Of a DNA stretch of 64,000 nt, positions 40,784 through 49,354 are shown in pieces. The position numbers and the translations under genes were made by a program. Each line of letters starts with the position of its first letter. Positions within the stretch are counted from its first letter, which is position 1. The notes beneath the pieces are model-generated. The model ran no database searches and had not been told where the DNA came from. It saw nothing but the letters and a program-made list of their open reading frames with translations. The DNA comes from an uncultured delta proteobacterium (lineage in GTDB: Bacteria; Desulfobacterota; Desulfobacteria; Desulfobacterales; B30-G6). Location of the stretch: assembly GCA_963823335.1 (NCBI GenBank), contig CAWGLD010000001.1, positions 1,664,001 through 1,728,000 on the forward strand. The letters run 5' to 3'.

Positions 40784-40929
40784 GAGAAACGCTCTAAAAA
40801 ATAGGATTTTGGCTCAAGGACAAGGCGGACGAGCGTTTCAACCCACAGGAATACTTTTGTATTTCGAGGAGTTGGAACGTGAGCCCAACGCAGAGAGTGA
40901 GCCAAAAGATATTTTTACGAATGCTTCTC
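40784..40929 (+). mobile_element. Family A palindromic element, copy 3, overlapping the carB 3' end
   Basis: Colinear with copy 1 (AATAGGATTTTG...CAAGGC...TTTCAACCCACAGGAATACTTTTGTATTTCGAGGAGTTG...AACGCAG). Confidence 0.8.
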
Positions 40930-43900
40930 GTAGTATTCCTGCAGGCAGTTATAGGTCATGGGCTGCTGACGCATCATTTTCAGACCACGTACGATGGCTT
41001 CGGCCGCGGACAGGGTGGTGATGACCGGAACCCGGTATTTGGTGGCAGCCCACCCGATGGCGAATTCATCGGAGCGGGCCCGCTGGCCCAAAGGGGTATT
41101 GATGATCAGATCGATACTGCGGTTCTTGATGTCGTCCACCACATTGGGCCGACCTTCGCTGGCTTTCAAAACTTCTGTTACGGCAATGCCCCTGTCGGCG
41201 ATGTAGGTCGCCGTTCCCCTGGTGGCCACCAGCTTGTAATTCATCTTCTGCAGACCGGCGGCAATGGGCACGATTCGCGGTTTGTCATTGTCGTTGACGC
41301 TCAGGAACACGGTGCCGGATTCGGGCACGGTGATACCGCTGGATAGAAAGGCCTTCATGACAGCCTCGCTGAAGGTCGGTGCTATGCCCATGACCTCGCC
41401 GGTGGACCGCATTTCCGGACGCAGGTATATATCGGCCTTGTCAAAGCGCTCAAAGGGGAAAACAGATTCCTTGACGGCGACATAGGCCGGTCGATCCCGA
41501 AAACTGACCTTGAACCGCTCTAACGATTGACCGGCCATGACCTTGACGGCAACCTTGGCAATGGGATTTCCCGTAGCCTTACTGACAAACGGGATCGTTC
41601 TGGATGCCCGGGGGTTGACCTCGAGGACATAGAGCGTATCGAACAGGATCGCAAACTGAATGTTGATCAGGCCCTTTACTTTCAGGGCCTTGGCCAGCAG
41701 GCGGGTATATTCCTTGATATCCTGCAACTGGTTCATGCTCAAAAGATAGGGCGGCAGGACAGCCATACTGTCACCGGAGTGTACGCCCGCTTCTTCAATA
41801 TGCTGCATGATGCCGCAGATTTTCGTGATTTTGCCGTCGGATACGGCATCGACATCAAACTCGTAGGCATCCTCAAGGAATCGATCCAGCAAAACAGGGT
41901 GTTCCTCAGAAGCGCTGACGGCATTTTGCATGTACTGTTTCAGGGATTCGGTGTTATAGACAATTTCCATGGCCCGGCCTCCCAGAACATACGAGGGCCT
42001 GACAACCAGCGGGAATCCGATTTTGTGACCCACATGCATGGCAGCGTCGATAGAGGTGGCAGTTCCATATTGAGGGTGCGGAATGTCCATTGAATCCAGG
42101 AGAGCCCCGAAACGATCACGATCTTCCGCCAGGTCGATGGAATCCGGTGATGTACCCCAGATCGGCACACCCGCTTTTTCCAGGGCCAGGGCCAGCTTCA
42201 AGGGTGTCTGCCCTCCGAACTGAACGATGACACCCAACGGTTTTTCGAGTTCGATCACATCCAGGACATCTTCATAGGTCAAGGGTTCGAAATAGAGCTT
42301 GTCAGCCACATCGTAGTCCGTGCTGACGGTCTCCGGATTACAGTTGATCATAATAGCTTCGATTCCCAGTTCTTTCAGGGCCAGGATGCCGTGAACACAG
42401 CAATAATCGAATTCAATCCCCTGGCCTATGCGATTGGGACCGCCGCCTAGAATGATGACCTTATTGTTTTCTGAAGGAATGGACTCATTCTCGGGATCAT
42501 AGGTGGAATAATAATAGGGTGTAAAGGATTCGAATTCGGCCGCACAGGTGTCCACGATTTTATAGGCGGGCAGCACGCCCTTTTCTTTGCGCAGGCTGCG
42601 AATATCAAGCTCGGTCTTACCGGTCAGCAGGGAGAGGTGCTTGTCAGAAAAACCAAAGCGCTTGGCTTTTCTGAGAGTTTCCGGTGCAAAGGTCTGGAGC
42701 TCTTTATAGGTTTGGGACAGGTGCTTTTCAACGTCGACCAGCTGTTGAAGATTTTCCAGGAACCAGATATCGATGCCGGATACGGTCGATATTTCCTTGG
42801 GGCTGATGCCGTTGAAGAGGGCTTGCCAGATCTTCAGGATACGATCCGGTGTTCCCCATCTCAGGTCATCCATCAAATCATCATGGGTGAGCTGGTCGTA
42901 AGAGAAGTTCCCATGGGCATGAAAACCCGACCAGCCGTTTTCAAGGGACCGCAGGGTCTTGTTCAAAGCCTCTTTGAAGGTCCGACCGATGCCCATGGCT
43001 TCACCCACCGACTTCATCTGCGACGTCAGGCGGTGGTCGTTCCCGGGGAATTTTTCGAAGTCCCATCGGGGGATCTTGACCACAACATAATCGATGGCGG
43101 GTTCAAAACAGGCCGGTGTTTTTCTGGTAATATCATTGGGAATTTCATCCAGGTGGTATCCGATGGCGAGCTTGGCGGCAATCTTGGCAATGGGAAACCC
43201 GGTGGCTTTGGATGCCAGGGCGGAGCTTCGGGATACCCGTGGGTTCATTTCGATGACCACCATTTCACCGGTTTTCGGGTTGAGCCCGAACTGGATATTG
43301 GCCCCTCCGGTTTCAACACCGATTCTGGTCACGATTATTTTGGCTGCATCCCGCATGGCCTGGTATTCCGCATCGGTCAAGGTCTGGGCCGGGGCAACCG
43401 TGATGCTGTCTCCCGTATGAATGCCCATGGGGTCGAAATTTTCGATGGAACACACGATCACAAAATTATCGGCCGCATCCCGCATGACTTCCAGTTCGTA
43501 TTCTTTCCATCCCAGGATGGACTGTTCGATCAAAATTTCCTTGACCGGGCTGGCGTTCAGCCCCCACTGGGCTGCCTGGGGAAATTCTTCTTTGTTGTAG
43601 ACAACACTTCCGCCGATACCTCCGAGGGTGAACGCAGGTCTGATGATCAGCGGAAAACCGATGGTGGCGGCCAGTTTCTCTGCCTCCTCCATGGTGTGTA
43701 CGCAGCCCCCATCGGGAACGTTCAGACCGATCTCCTTCATGGCATTGCGAAAAAGATCCCTGTCTTCCGCCAGTTGGATGGTTTCCAGATTGGCGCCGAT
43801 GAGTTCTACACCGTACCGATCCAGGACCCCGCTTTGGGCCAGCTCGACGGCCAGGTTCAGACTGGTTTGACCACCGATTGTGGGCAGCAGCGCATCAGGG

Positions 43901-44145
43901 CGTTCTTTTTCGATGATTTTGGCGATGACATCGGCCTGTAAGGGTTCGATATACGTTCGATCCGAAAATTCCGGGTCCGTCATGATGGTGGCGGGATTGT
44001 TGTTGATCAGAATGACGATAAACCCCTCTTCCCGGAGGGCTTTACAGGCCTGGGTGCCGGAATAATCAAATTCGCAGGCTTGCCCGATGACAATGGGGCC
44101 GGATCCGATGACCAATATTCGTTTTAGATCTTTACGTTTTGGCAT
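40915..44145 (-). CDS. carB: Carbamoyl-phosphate synthase large subunit
   Basis: [17 protein letters not shown], duplicated ATP-grasp domains, MGS domain. Confidence 0.98.
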
Positions 44146-45244
44146 GGAATTGTTTCATTTCCTCTACAAATTGTTTGAAAAGATAGCGACTGTCGTTGGG
44201 CCCGGGCGATGCCTCGGGGTGATATTGTACCGAGAAGGCCGGCAGGTGTTTGTGTCTGAGACCCTCGAGGGTATTGTCGTTCAAATTGATGTGGGTGATT
44301 TCAATTTCCTCCCGGGGCAGGCTTTCAATATCGACATTGAAGCCATGGTTCTGGGAGGTGATCTCCACCGCCCCGGTGTGCAGGTTTTTTACCGGATGAT
44401 TGGCACCGTGGTGACCGAACTTCAGCTTGACGGTTTTGGCCCCCATAGCCAGGGATAGGATTTGATGCCCCAGACAGATGCCGAAGATGGGTATCCGTCC
44501 CAGAAGATAGCGTGCTGCCGCCACTGCGTATGTCACCGGTTCGGGGTCGCCGGGTCCATTGGAAAAAAAGATGCCATCCGGTTTCCAGGCCAGGATTTCT
44601 TCCGGTGGCGTGTGGGCCGGAAAGATGCGCAACTTGCAGCCGTGATCGTGAAGCGCCCTCAAAATCGAAAACTTGACGCCGAAGTCATAAACGGCCACCC
44701 GGTGGTTGTGTGGGCCGGTTTTGTCGCCAGGGTCTTCAAGGGGCCAGGCATAACTTTCATTGGTGGTAATTTCCTGAACGATATCCCTGCCAACCAGCTG
44801 TTTACTGTCCGCCAGTTGTTTGGCAAGGGCCGACAAGGGTTCATCAGAGGTGGTGATCAGGCCCATTTGAGAGCCATGGTCCCTCAGGTGCCGGGTGATG
44901 GCCCGGGTATCCACATCGCTGATCCCGCCTACACCATGGTGGGTCAAATATTCATCCAGGGATCTGTCGGCTTGCCAGTGACTGACAACCGGGCTGTATT
45001 CCCGAATGATGAAACCTGAGGCGTAGATACGTCGGGATTCAAAATCCATTGGATTGACGCCGTAATTTCCTATCTGGGGGTAGGTCATGACCACCATCTG
45101 AAAATGGTAGGAGGGATCGGTCAGGATTTCCTGATATCCCATCATGGCTGTATTAAAAACCACTTCTCCGATGGCGGTTCCCTCGGCCCCCAGGGAAAGA
45201 CCTTCAAAACAGGTGCCGTCTGCCAGTAGTAGTCTTGCTTTCAT
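44132..45244 (-). CDS. carA: Carbamoyl-phosphate synthase small subunit
   Basis: GEVVFNT, SNGPGDP, GICLGHQ and [10 protein letters not shown] motifs. Confidence 0.98.
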
Positions 45245-45277: not shown

Positions 45278-45348
45278 TTTAGGTGTTTAGACTGTCAGGC
45301 TGTTAGACTGTTAGCCGCTAACAGTCTAACAGCCTACAGCCTAACCTC
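45278..45348. repeat. Short-period (7-8 bp) palindromic tandem repeat between argG and carA
   Basis: TTAGACTG TCAGGCTG TTAGACTG TTAG followed by the inverted series CTAACAGT CTAACAGC CTACAGC CTAAC. Confidence 0.7.
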
Positions 45349-45362
45349 CTTGTGTTTCGATA

Positions 45363-46622
45363 TTAATCTCTCTTGAATTTACTGTAATCCGGCTGACGAT
45401 ACCGGCTTTCACCGCTGCCCTCGATGTCCAGAAGTGCCTCCACCTTCAAGGGCAGACCGAACAGCTGAATAAAGCCGTGGGCATCCTGTTGGTTGTAGAC
45501 ATTGTCTTCCCCAAAGGAAGCGTAATCCTCGCGATACAGGCTGAAAGGACTTTTGCGGCCTGCAATGGTAGCATTGCCCTTGTATAGTTTCATGCGGACC
45601 GTTCCCGTAATCTTATGCTGGGTTGTCTTTACAAAAGCATCCAGGGCTTCCCGAAGCTGCATGAACCACATGCCGTTGTAGACCAGTTCTGCATATTTGA
45701 CGGATACGAAGTCTTTATAGTGCATGGTGTACTTGTCCAGGCAGATACTTTCGAGGGCCTGGTGCGCGCGGTATATGACGGTGCCTGCCGGTGTTTCGTA
45801 AATGCCGCGGCTTTTCATTCCCACCAGACGGTTTTCGACAATATCCACCCGACCGACACCGTGCTGACCGGCAATCGAATTTAAACGGGTGAAAAGTTCC
45901 AGGGCGTTCAGCTTTTCGCCATCAAGGGCAACCGGGTTTCCCTTGTTGAACCCGATTTCAATATAAACGGGTTTATCGGGTGCATCTTCAGGGCTGACCG
46001 TCAATTGAAACATCTCCTTGGCAGGTTCGTTCCAGGGATCTTCGAGGAGACCCCCTTCATGGGAGAGATGGAAAATGTTGCGGTCGCGGCTGTAAATGTC
46101 CTTTTCTGTCTGCTGGATGGGAATGTTGTACTTGATGGCGTATTTGATAGCGTCTTCACGGCTCTTGATTTCCCATTCGCGCCAGGGGGCGATGACCTTC
46201 AATTTTGGGTTCAGGGCCATGATGGTCAACTCAAATCTTACCTGGTCGTTGCCTTTCCCGGTACAGCCGTGGGAAACAGCATCAGCCCCTTCGGCCTCGG
46301 CGACATCCACCAGTTTTTTGGCGATCAGCGGTCGGGCAATAGACGTGCCTAACAGGTACTCGCGTTCGTATACCGCACCGGCCTGCATGGTCGGGAACAC
46401 GTAGTCCACCAGAAATTCTTCGCGCAGATCCATCACCACCAGCTTGCTCGCACCAGATGCAATGGCTTTTTCTTCCAGACCGTGCAACTCTTCATCTTGT
46501 CCCAGGTCGGCAGCGAAGCAGATGACTTCGCAATTTCCATAGTTGTTCTTGAGCCAGGGTACGATCACCGAGGTATCCAGTCCTCCGCTGTAGGCCAGGA
46601 CGACTTTTTTAACCGTTGTCAT
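45363..46622 (-). CDS. argG: Argininosuccinate synthase
   Basis: [23 protein letters not shown] and KSRGIYETP motifs. Confidence 0.98.
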
Positions 46623-46639
46623 GATTGCTGCTCCTTTTC

Positions 46640-46672
46640 AAAAAAAAAACCCGGCAATTGCCGGGGGTTTTT
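46640..46672 (-). terminator. Attenuator terminator directly upstream of the argG RBS
   Basis: Minus strand AAAAACCCCCGGC-AATT-GCCGGG-T10. Confidence 0.85.
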
Positions 46673-46693
46673 GTACTTTTTGGATTTCTACCA

Positions 46694-46780
46694 TTATTCG
46701 TATTTCCACAAAAAACACCCGGGCAGTAAAAGGGTACGACAACGTCGGCGGGTGAAGTTTTGGATCTTATCGGGTGTCAT
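46694..46780 (-). CDS. Putative arginine leader peptide MTPDKIQNFTRRRCRTLLLPGCFLWKYE (28 aa)
   Basis: AGGAAGG RBS; clustered Arg codons CGC CGA CGT TGT CGT; lies between a promoter and a terminator upstream of argG. Confidence 0.75.
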   Translation of the reverse strand: MTPDKIQNFTRRRCRTLLLPGCFLWKYE

Positions 46781-46812
46781 GCTGCCTTCCTGACTGAGAT
46801 TAAATCTGGCGC

Positions 46813-46841
46813 AATATGTCAAAAAAGAAAAATCCTGTCAA
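46813..46841 (-). promoter_or_regulatory. Sigma70-type promoter for leader-argG-carA-carB
   Basis: TTGACA-17 bp-CATATT, with the -10 element 32 nt upstream of the leader ATG. Confidence 0.65.
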
Positions 46842-46884
46842 CCATGAAATATATAGGAAGTGCTAAGTGATCTAACGTTGATCC

Positions 46885-46946
46885 AGCACAGAGCTTCAGC
46901 TCTGCTCGTAGACCTTTATTTTTGCAGGTCTGAAGACCTGCGCTAC
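46885..46946. repeat. GTAG-type REP doublet downstream of argB
   Basis: AGCACAGAGCTTCAGCTCTGC...GCAGGTCTGAAGACCTGCGCTAC, same family as 39995-40111. Confidence 0.7.
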
Positions 46947-46988
46947 ATTACATGGAAAAACCAGCGCCGGCACACCGGGTATGGGTGT

Positions 46989-47792
46989 CTATCGTTTCAG
47001 GAGCGTGCCGGAGCGGCATTCACCGGCTACAATTTCCTGCAGGGTGGCAATACCTGCCCATTGGATAATGTAAACGGCAGGCACCTGATTTGCCAGCGCT
47101 TTGAACGCCGACGTCATTTTCGCCAGCATGCCTCCCTTGATGGTGCCGTCGGCAATGCGTTCCCGGGCCTGCTGTTCGGAAAGGGTCCGGCAGACAGTCT
47201 CGCCGTCTATGACACCAGGAACATCCGTGATGAACACAAGCCCCATACAGCCGATTTTCGCAGCCAGGGCTGCTGCGGCACTGTCTGCATTGACATTGAA
47301 GCTGCGCTGGTTTTCATCCCCGGAGATGGGTGAAATAACCGGTACACGACCTTTCTTGAGGGCGCGCAGGACAACCTCACCATTGATCTGTTTGATGTCG
47401 CCCACAAATCCATACTGCCTGCCGTCACGGGTCATGGGCTTCACTACAAAGAGCTGTTCGGTTTTCCCAGACATGCGTTGACAGGAGACACCGTTATCCG
47501 TCAGCCAGGACGCGATACGCGTGTTGATGGTTTCGGAGAGAACTTCTTCAATGATGGTCATGTCCTCGGCCTGGGTGACCCTGATGCCATCGATAAACAG
47601 GGTCTCACGGCCATGATCTTGCAGGGCTTTCGATATCTCGGCCCCCCCCCCATGTACGATGATCGTCTCGATATCGGGAACGGCTCTGATAGCCTGGGCC
47701 AGTTCGCGGAAACCGGATTCTTTTTCAAATGCACGCCCACCGATTTTAATCAGCAGTCTGGGGTTCGAGGATTTCAGGTTTCTTGGGCTCAT
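46989..47792 (-). CDS. argB: Acetylglutamate kinase
   Basis: IKIGG, IVHGGG, RVT, NVNAD, TDVPGV and GGMLAK motifs. Confidence 0.9.
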   Translation of the reverse strand: MSPRNLKSSNPRLLIKIGGRAFEKESGFRELAQAIRAVPDIETIIVHGGGAEISKALQDHGRETLFIDGIRVTQAEDMTIIEEVLSETINTRIASWLTDNGVSCQRMSGKTEQLFVVKPMTRDGRQYGFVGDIKQINGEVVLRALKKGRVPVISPISGDENQRSFNVNADSAAAALAAKIGCMGLVFITDVPGVIDGETVCRTLSEQQARERIADGTIKGGMLAKMTSAFKALANQVPAVYIIQWAGIATLQEIVAGECRSGTLLKR

Positions 47793-48271: not shown

Positions 48272-49354
48272 ATGAAAAAATTTGCCGAGACCACCCAGCA
48301 AACCTACGAGGGATGGAAAGAATTTTACGAAAAGCCTGCCGATGAAAAGAACCGGTTTTTCCAGTCGGGCGGTAGATTGATCGACATTATATTTGCTCAG
48401 CAGTTTGACAGATCTTTTTTAGATCGCATGAGCCGGCTGGGGGATATGATTCGACTGCTGGCGAAAACCAAGCTGGGCCAGAACCATCTCAGGCATCTTT
48501 TGCCGCATAAAAGGGCCATGCTGTATTTTTCTCAGCCGTCGACCCGAACGTTTCTTTCATTCCAAAACGCCTGTCACATGCTGGGGCTGAGCGTGTCTGA
48601 AATCCGTGGAACCACCACCAGTTCAGAGGTGAAGGGTGAATCACAGGAGGATACGATACGGACGTTTGCCAGTTATGTGGACCTGATTATTTCACGGCAT
48701 CCGGAAGCCGGATTTGCTGAAAAGACAGCCTGGGTCCTGAATCAAACCGACCGGGCGGTACCTGTTATCAATGGCGGATCAGGACCTGATCAACATCCCA
48801 CCCAGGCGCTGCTGGATATTTACACCCTCGAACGGGAGTTCAGCAAGAACGGCGGATTGGACGGTAAAAAAATTGCCATGGTGGGTGATTTGAAGAGAGG
48901 TAGAACCGTTCGTTCCTTGAGTTATCTGATGAAAAATTATCGGGATGTCGAGCTATATTTCGCTGCTCCGGAAATTTATAAGATGAAAGACGATATCACG
49001 TCTTTCTTGACACGTCATCACATCCCCTACCATGAGACCGAAGACTTTGAAAGTATCATGCCGCTGGTGGATGCCATATACATGACCCGAATTCAGAACG
49101 AATATTCGGAGGACCCAGCCCATGAAGCGGAAACCTATCCTGCTTTTCATTTCAAGAAGGAGCACCTTGACAATATCCAGGCGCACTGTGTCATTCTGCA
49201 CCCGCTGCCCCGGCGCTATGAGATCGATGTGGCCGTGGACAAGGATCCCCGGGCAGCCTATTGGCGGCAGGAACGCAACGGCATGTGGATCCGGGCGGCC
49301 TTGATTGCCTATCTCTTCAAGGTCGAGAGCGAGATTGTGGATGTGTTTTCCTGA
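48272..49354 (+). CDS. pyrB: Aspartate carbamoyltransferase catalytic subunit
   Basis: PSTRT, KGES, HPTQ, GDLKRGRT, TRIQNE and HPLPR motifs. Confidence 0.9.
   Translation: MKKFAETTQQTYEGWKEFYEKPADEKNRFFQSGGRLIDIIFAQQFDRSFLDRMSRLGDMIRLLAKTKLGQNHLRHLLPHKRAMLYFSQPSTRTFLSFQNACHMLGLSVSEIRGTTTSSEVKGESQEDTIRTFASYVDLIISRHPEAGFAEKTAWVLNQTDRAVPVINGGSGPDQHPTQALLDIYTLEREFSKNGGLDGKKIAMVGDLKRGRTVRSLSYLMKNYRDVELYFAAPEIYKMKDDITSFLTRHHIPYHETEDFESIMPLVDAIYMTRIQNEYSEDPAHEAETYPAFHFKKEHLDNIQAHCVILHPLPRRYEIDVAVDKDPRAAYWRQERNGMWIRAALIAYLFKVESEIVDVFS

Follow-up and report, generated by a model that had tools for sequence, protein, structure and literature searches.

On the minus strand of a 64,000-nucleotide stretch of contig CAWGLD010000001.1 (positions 1,664,001 to 1,728,000; hereafter the window), from an uncultured delta proteobacterium of the Desulfobacterales, the genes argG, carA and carB are preceded by a short element. 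This element is real. In our opinion it is very probably a ribosome-mediated leader-peptide attenuator through which argG-carA-carB respond to the charging of tRNA-Arg, a judgement that we base on sequence comparison and predicted folding. Classical attenuators (trpL, hisL, leuL, thrL, ilvL/ivbL, pheL) consist of a short open reading frame (ORF) containing codons for the end product of the pathway, of helices 1:2, 2:3 and 3:4, and of a terminator located before the first gene. As far as such a definition can be applied to sequence, the anatomy of the argG leader is that of a classical leader-peptide attenuator, without membership in any Rfam leader family. What is new here is the amino-acid specificity, the regulon and the taxa; the mechanism itself is already known.

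A first-pass annotation, made from the letters of the window alone, had placed a promoter, a ribosome-binding site, an ORF with clustered Arg codons and a terminator in this region, and all of them are indeed found at the minus-strand coordinates that it gave (Table 1). The -10 hexamer of the promoter has a TG two bases upstream, that is, an extended -10, and the start of the leader ORF sits 61 nt past the -35 element. The Arg codons of the ORF are confined to codons 11-13 and 15, and the first of them is overlapped by region 1. From the end of the terminator to the ATG of argG (46622) there are only 17 nt. This leaves no space for an intervening promoter, hence argG is transcribed through the terminator; the annotation had named a promoter downstream of the terminator as an observation that would speak against its proposal, and there is no room for one.

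The annotation further claimed that a segment inside the leader ORF, our region 2, is complementary to the 5' arm of the terminator. The calculation bears this out. Region 2 and region 3 form 13 bp with one C/C mismatch and one bulge, with an energy of -16.4 kcal/mol; when the upstream segment was shuffled 1000 times with its dinucleotides preserved, 18 shuffles reached this value. When the transcript of the genome holding the window (G000, an assembly that is 93.9% complete) is truncated before the 3' arm of the terminator, its minimum free energy (MFE) structure is the 2:3 duplex, whether or not the Arg codons are masked by a simulated ribosome. The MFE structure of the full leader instead combines the terminator 3:4 with helix 1:2, in which region 1 pairs with CGGGUG (46721-46716) around the Arg codons. 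Folding with and without masked segments recovers 2:3 and 3:4 as mutually exclusive structures, as had been proposed, while helix 1:2 was not mentioned in that proposal and is added here. Nascent-transcript folds pass through the same succession in all seven representatives that were folded: first 1:2, then 2:3 with the 5' arm of the terminator captured, and finally 1:2 together with 3:4. Helix 1:2, predicted in all seven, appears as ACAYCCG/CGGGUGU in loci L010, L045, L048 and L063, and it rests on conserved sequence with little covariation. The stability of the whole leader fold compared with shuffles (z -0.16) is uninformative.

These pairings would act as follows. Transcription would start at the TTGACA-17-CATATT promoter, and the nascent RNA would first form helix 1:2 (CACCCG/CGGGUG), which encloses the Arg codons; together with the U run that follows it (UGUUUUUUGU), this helix may serve as a pause hairpin synchronising the ribosome with the polymerase. 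If Arg-tRNA is scarce, the ribosome would stall at codons 11-13 and cover region 1, leaving region 2 free to pair with region 3, so that the terminator would be blocked and the polymerase would read into argG. If Arg-tRNA is plentiful, the ribosome would cross region 2 and reach the stop codon during synthesis of regions 3 and 4. It would then enclose the U-rich half of region 2, whose GC core would re-pair with region 1; the terminator 3:4 would then form and transcription would end 17 nt before argG. We infer translation of the leader ORF, stalling on its Arg codons, pausing and the response to arginine from this arrangement.

Table 1. Features of the argG leader and of the operon that follows it, in coordinates of the window
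Feature	Position	Strand	Remark
Promoter TTGACA (46841-46836), 17 nt, CATATT (46818-46813)	46813..46841	-	sigma-70-type, 10/12 matches
AGGAAGG, Shine-Dalgarno-like, for the leader ORF	46785..46791	-	
Leader ORF, 28 codons + TAA, peptide MTPDKIQNFTRRRCRTLLLPGCFLWKYE	46694..46780	-	
Regulatory codons CGC CGA CGT TGT CGT (RRRCR, codons 11-15)	46736..46750	-	
Region 1, CACCCG, 5' strand of helix 1:2 (anti-antiterminator/pause)	46749..46754	-	MFE folds
Region 2, UGCCCGGGUGUUUUUUGU, partner of region 1 or of region 3 (antiterminator)	46708..46725	-	
Region 3, ACAAAAACCCCCGGCA, 3' strand of the antiterminator, includes the 5' arm of the terminator	46659..46674	-	
Intrinsic terminator CCCGGC-AATT-GCCGGG (46665-46650) + T10 (46649-46640), regions 3:4	46640..46665	-	
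argG, argininosuccinate synthase, Shine-Dalgarno GGAG at 46634-46631	45363..46622	-	NCBIfam 628 bits vs cut-off 334
carA, carbamoyl-phosphate synthase small subunit	44132..45244	-	NCBIfam
carB, carbamoyl-phosphate synthase large subunit	40915..44145	-	NCBIfam

Relatives keep this arrangement. A first search covered 41 genomes including G000, and a close ArgG (85-100% identical) occurs in 10 of them: G000, eight others of its genus, and G024. Each of the 10 carries the element with promoter, Arg-run ORF, region 2 and terminator, and the leader peptides of these close relatives include MISETTQNRTRRRRRIRLLPGCFLWKYK, MNLICTRRRRCIKLQAGCFLWQVQCR and MKHALNNTRIRHCRRRCRRLLAGCLMYCT. In the other genomes of the order that this search covered, ArgG is 53-58% identical and is mostly encoded behind argF or argD, without such a leader. 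A wider scan of species-representative genomes with ArgG returned 80 loci, 67-97% identical, from metagenome-assembled genomes of Desulfobacterales or labelled 'delta proteobacterium', from Anaerolineae and from Caldilineaceae. From the loci of both searches, one wrongly sliced locus (L043) and 9 duplicates were removed, leaving 80 unique loci, and 3 with less than 250 nt upstream were excluded, leaving 77. In 41 of the 77 loci, argG is preceded by an ATG-initiated ORF, 6-60 codons long, in which some stretch of 5 codons holds at least 4 Arg, compared with 7 of 770 dinucleotide shuffles; for at least 3 Arg in 5 codons the counts are 58/77 and 118/770. Between leader and argG there is an intrinsic terminator in 55 of the 58 loci that have a 3-Arg-in-5 leader. 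Among argG loci of other clades, 4 of 19 reach the cut-off of at least 3 Arg in 5, and none has the architecture.

Thirty-seven leaders of Desulfobacterales type share one common architecture and were aligned (alignment A2). An ATG, an in-frame Arg run and a stop codon are present in 37/37, the ORF mostly having 24-32 codons (median 28), and a promoter similar to TTGACA-17-CATATT lies about 61 nt before the leader ATG in 30/37. Region 2 (GCCGGGUGUUUU), of which the core GCCGGGUGU is nearly invariant, has its core end a median of 18 nt ahead of the stop codon; region 3 (AAAACCCCGGC) and the terminator stem begin a median of 27 nt (20-38) after it; from the T run to the start of argG the median distance is 23 nt. 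The first-pass annotation had made conservation of the Arg cluster and of covarying pairings in relatives a touchstone of its proposal, and relatives do keep the clustered Arg codons along with the terminator and its competing helix (10/10 close loci and the 37 of Desulfobacterales type), with an antiterminator extension that covaries.

Classical covariation is rare, since the cores hardly vary. In the terminator helix 96.6% of the cells are paired, and 3 of its 11 pairs are changed on both sides in the 37 sequences. A column-wise covariation analysis of 1:2 and 2:3 on A2 was dropped, since region 1 was misaligned between subgroups and the cores are invariant, and we replaced it with a test of cognate against permuted duplexes. 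The 20-nt flanks of the antiterminator core differ by subgroup, for example UCUGCGU with ACGCA, or UUUAUGUUG with CAACAUAAA. With 15 subgroup representatives, the cognate region 2/3 extensions have -9.97 kcal/mol versus -7.53 +/- 0.59 kcal/mol for permuted ones, and none of 20000 permutations was as low.

The Arg run, on the other hand, shows the marks of a coding sequence. Arg accounts for 275 of 1093 leader codons (25%), compared with 5.3% in the long ORFs of G000, and the leaders of relatives carry 4-12 Arg. Five of the six Arg codons (CGU, CGC, CGA, CGG and AGG) are used at aligned Arg positions, and CGU, CGC and CGA together make up 87% of the leader Arg codons versus 49% genome-wide. The arrangement of the Arg codons varies by subgroup with the reading frame kept. 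Region 2 is preserved differently: its nucleotides are kept and yet read in two frames, as A-G-C-F/L (AGCF) or as PGVF, and it is thus conserved as RNA. Judged from these sequences, it is codons that are preserved in the Arg run and RNA that is preserved in region 2. A ribosome-sensed switch predicts this pattern, which argues against an untranslated RNA element. On the side of decoding, ARAGORN found 46 tRNAs in the 94%-complete assembly of G000, among them tRNA-Arg with anticodons TCG, CCT, TCT and CCG, and did not find ACG. Either tRNA-Arg(ACG) is missing from the assembly, or the decoding of CGU and CGC, the main leader codons, is unusual. The preference for CGU, CGC and CGA might be aimed at a single isoacceptor.

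The element is also specific to its position. A covariance model was built from A2 and applied to a sample of 151 genomes of the order. Its strong full-length matches number 10 (79-136 bits), and each lies directly upstream of a gene whose ArgG is 79-100% identical to that of the window and which is followed by carA. At E<=0.001, 93 of the 151 genomes were matched, and all but 10 of these matches were partial (the terminator half) or weak full-length ones; those of the weak matches that we inspected (L124, L131, L135) do not precede argG. In G000 itself, nhmmer and a scan for Arg ORFs followed by a terminator returned 14 raw matches as candidates for a second copy, of which only the argG leader is credible.

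A separate observation concerns L135 (genome G100). At L135:1250-1395, a small ORF (MDSTITTKRTRRSWAWCVRWLRGSDM) and a strong terminator lie directly upstream of asd (L135:1425-2510), encoding aspartate-semialdehyde dehydrogenase. The T-I-T-T-K run of this ORF suggests a putative threonine-type leader attenuator in the same order.

Outside the Desulfobacterales, Chloroflexota loci such as L071, L074, L083, L084, L091 and L094 have short Arg-run ORFs (MKTLSNINRRLRRRTRK, MKFQRRRRN, ...FARRRPAGSGR...) and terminators ahead of argG, with unrelated RNA sequence. In L071 and L074 the folds contain a clean antiterminator adjoining the stop codon. In L083, L084 and L091 (Anaerolineae/Caldilineales) a conserved RNA, located about 230-90 nt before argG, follows ORFs of 7-9 codons (MQRRRTI, MKFQRRRRN and MFIQRRRRS); here CGCAGGCGU, the Arg codons, is base-paired to a distant ACGCGUCUGC with an inner hairpin between the two strands, after which comes the terminator CCACGAUGG. 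In structural prediction, this RNA looks like a distinct class of the same idea. Loci from Desulfobacterales keep the order leader-argG-carA-carB, and their argG-carA spacers measure 5 nt or more; in the Chloroflexota loci carA is not placed after argG.

Between Desulfobacterales and Anaerolineae or Caldilineaceae, leader-bearing ArgG is about 70-80% identical (about 80% for some Anaerolineae), as opposed to 53-58% identical to the other ArgG of Desulfobacterales. These identities suggest that argG was horizontally transferred, perhaps together with its leader.

It may be asked whether arginine is what the leader senses. The Arg codons could be a by-product of a GC-rich helix 1, in which case the attenuator would be coupled to translation without arginine specificity and would report general translation capacity or coupling. 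Indeed the Arg codons lie inside 1:2 and inner hairpins (for example CGUCGCCG/CGGCGACG in L036), so that RNA structure also constrains them, and a switch between 2:3 and 3:4 would function with any slow codons. However, the Arg enrichment persists across differing arrangements (RIRHCRRRCRR, IRRRNRRRSSR, RRRRR) that employ 5 different Arg codons, an arginine-pathway gene follows 10 of the 10 strong model matches, and the Arg-run ORFs of Chloroflexota precede the same argG clade in spite of their unrelated RNA sequence. We regard a leader blind to arginine as quite unlikely.

Another thought is that the RNA binds a protein or a ligand, in the manner of a riboswitch or of PyrR or TRAP targets, and that the small ORF is untranslated. 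At the window leader, no Rfam family, T-box included, reaches its gathering score in a search at E<=10; the sub-threshold matches are driven by the terminator, with Leu_leader (RF00512) at 23.8 bits against a gathering score of 50, Phe_leader (RF01859) at 22.1 against 55 and Trp_leader (RF00513) at 15.2 against 41. In 20 related loci, Rfam recognized only a tRNA (L083) and isrJ (L057, 2339-2409, 39.2 bits versus a gathering score of 37), the relation of the isrJ match to the leader not being established. It is true that region 2 is kept as RNA whatever the frame, that Shine-Dalgarno-like motifs are weak or missing in 21/37 leaders, and that the presence of carAB makes a pyrimidine-sensing factor plausible. 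Yet an ATG, an in-frame Arg run and a stop codon are retained in all 37, such ORFs are rare in shuffles (7/770), and there is no conserved unpaired pocket-like sequence outside the helices. Hence a binding switch of this kind appears to us highly unlikely.

The leader peptide is strongly basic, and runs of basic residues can slow ribosomes. One could thus imagine ribosome arrest by the nascent poly-Arg peptide, triggered by free arginine or some other signal and not by tRNA limitation, as with the fungal arginine attenuator peptide or TnaC. Such an arginine-induced stall would free the antiterminator and raise argG at high arginine, which is the wrong polarity for biosynthesis. Moreover, the peptide is unconserved outside the Arg run, and its C-terminal part changes frame between subgroups. 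There is, in our view, very little chance that arrest by the peptide explains the leader.

Weak evidence on expression comes from environmental RNA. In 4 of 4 estuary metatranscriptome runs a contig spans leader, terminator and argG at 95-99% likeness, with DNA carry-over being possible. These bridging contigs fit co-transcription; they show no starts, ends, strand or level. None of the contigs from the 4 runs lies on 46886-47100, and those that reach 46841 continue into the different upstream sequence of a relative, so no inference on the transcription start can be drawn from them. That RNA-library contigs bridge the terminator would also be expected if there were no regulator at all, only a gene for a small basic protein with its own leaky terminator and argG expressed by constitutive read-through, an idea that we consider extremely unlikely in view of the positionally fixed helix that excludes the terminator and has covarying extensions, the lack of peptide conservation outside the Arg run and the strict linkage to argG.

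Several observations weigh against an arginine-sensing attenuator and deserve to be stated together. The first group concerns the switch itself. In the absence of a ribosome the truncated transcript thermodynamically prefers 2:3, so that termination depends on kinetics and on 1:2 forming first. Across 55 loci, the duplex between the 5' arm of the terminator and upstream sequence is better than shuffles (p<=0.05) in just 17 (median z -1.6). Regions 2, 3 and 4 hardly vary in their cores, which show next to no covariation; in G000 and its own genus the 2:3 extension is only a U run facing an A run that does no better than non-cognate partners, and G000 ranks 7/15 among partners in the permutation test. 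A ribosome at the stop codon covers the U-rich 3' half of region 2 and not the GCCCGGG core. The last point touches the annotation's claim that full translation masks the antiterminator: the claim stands only with tight coupling of transcription and translation, helped by helix 1:2, and fails insofar as the ribosome at the stop codon misses the GCCCGGG core.

The second group concerns the leader ORF and its distribution. The Arg run of G000 is the weakest in the genus (RRRCR, that is, 4 Arg with one position TGT), and a Shine-Dalgarno-like motif precedes the leader ATG in only 16 of the 37 aligned leaders, as judged by a crude pattern. In G000, argB, argC, argF, argH and argJ are without an Arg leader. 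Several of the Chloroflexota variants (among them the group of L083, L084 and L091) have no evident antiterminator on the terminator arm in duplex and fold tests, the duplex signal of the variants being weak and their folds containing other long-range helices, and all carriers seen are metagenome-assembled genomes. Finally, carB is the sole large subunit of carbamoyl-phosphate synthetase (CPSase) above cut-off in G000. The sole carAB also feeds pyrimidine synthesis, and control by arginine only would starve the cell of pyrimidines unless read-through or an internal promoter supplies carAB.

The surroundings of the leader can be described briefly. Between argG and carA (45288-45343, minus strand) there is a near-perfect hairpin of about 26 bp (GGCUGUAGGCUGUUAGACUGUUAGC...), with -46.5 kcal/mol and a z of -7.4 versus shuffles and without a U tract; it has a few partial copies elsewhere in G000, one of them near argF. 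This hairpin may act in RNA processing or stability, or it may partly block transcription from argG into carAB. Upstream of the leader lies argB, confirmed by NCBIfam. The spacer between them (46880-46988, minus strand) holds the hairpins CCGGTGTGCCGGCGCTGG followed by TTTTT (46978-46961), GCAGGTC-TTCA-GACCTGC and CAGAGCT-GA-AGCTCTG, which are probably the terminator region of argB, separating argB from the leader promoter. Divergent from argB, at 48272-49354 on the plus strand, is an aspartate-carbamoyltransferase-like gene (asp_carb_tr, 253.6 bits versus a cut-off of 236.95), whose family match begins only at residue 69 of 360. Its position beside argB makes arginine and pyrimidine genes neighbours here.

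Bacterial arg genes are typically under the control of ArgR-type repressors or T-boxes. ARG boxes were not searched for, and ArgR itself was not found: PF01316 has no match in G000, and PF02863 has none in 41 genomes of the order (G000 and 40 relatives), with control genomes positive. The order as a whole seems to be without ArgR, and for this reason its absence does not separate genomes that carry the leader from those that do not. The ArgR/ARG-box system and the Arg T-boxes serve the same physiological task, feedback on arg genes; ArgR was not found in these genomes, nor a T-box at the window leader.

How does the argG leader compare with known systems? With the enterobacterial attenuators it shares a promoter-proximal ORF containing codons for the product of the pathway, helices 2:3 and 3:4 with a predicted helix 1:2, and a terminator just before the first structural gene. 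It differs from them in the proposed sensing of arginine, in the regulation of argG-carAB, in its hosts (Desulfobacterales, with variants in Chloroflexota) and in the lack of any similarity of sequence or model; in addition, about 18 nt separate the antiterminator core from the stop codon behind it, while in those attenuators the stop codon lies just before the core. In fungi, the upstream ORF of CPA1/arg-2 encodes a conserved nascent peptide that stalls the ribosome on free arginine; that control is translational and involves neither an Arg-codon cluster nor a terminator. Both there and, as we propose, here arginine controls carbamoyl-phosphate synthetase by way of an upstream ORF, without homology between the two.

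In the literature covered, which did not include subscription journals and supplements, no bacterial leader attenuator for arginine biosynthesis was found. Under 'arginine attenuator' only the fungal system surfaced, matches for 'arginine leader peptide' turned out to be twin-arginine signal peptides, and the word 'arginine' does not occur in Naville and Gautheret 2010. The nearest published bacterial case of pausing on Arg codons that we found is the Salmonella orf34-speF leader, where at low arginine a ribosome paused on successive Arg codons shifts the mRNA to another structure (PMC6386406). In this leader there are two Arg codons, and the outcome involves Rho-dependent termination, unmasking of a ribosome-binding site and RNase G sensitivity of the ornithine decarboxylase mRNA (PMC6386406); unlike the argG leader, it has no intrinsic-terminator switch and no arginine biosynthesis operon. 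A leader peptide with an attenuator before a carbamoyl-phosphate-related operon is also known from the UTP-sensitive pyrBI of Escherichia coli and from Pseudomonas aeruginosa carA, the leader peptide of the latter responding to pyrimidines (PMC4997734, citing Kwon et al.). In such leaders the response to pyrimidines depends on pausing of the polymerase, and translation extends into the terminator. Unlike this type, the argG leader ORF stops 20-38 nt (median 27) before the terminator stem and has a run of Arg codons.

As to the wider meaning, we would give even chances to the following. The element would belong to a large, so far unpublished family of tRNA-Arg-sensing attenuators that accompanies a single argG clade from phylum to phylum and gives ArgR-less lineages their feedback on arginine; in Desulfobacterales the sole CPSase, and with it the supply of pyrimidines, would then answer to the charging of Arg-tRNA. 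This raises the question of how pyrimidines are supplied with only carAB behind an arginine switch. If our proposal is true, it would suggest that a regulator and its gene move together by horizontal transfer, and reporters of Arg-tRNA charging could be built on a small sensor taken from nature. It would also give annotation a new class of small ORFs, and it would explain how arginine synthesis is controlled in ArgR-less, mostly uncultured lineages.

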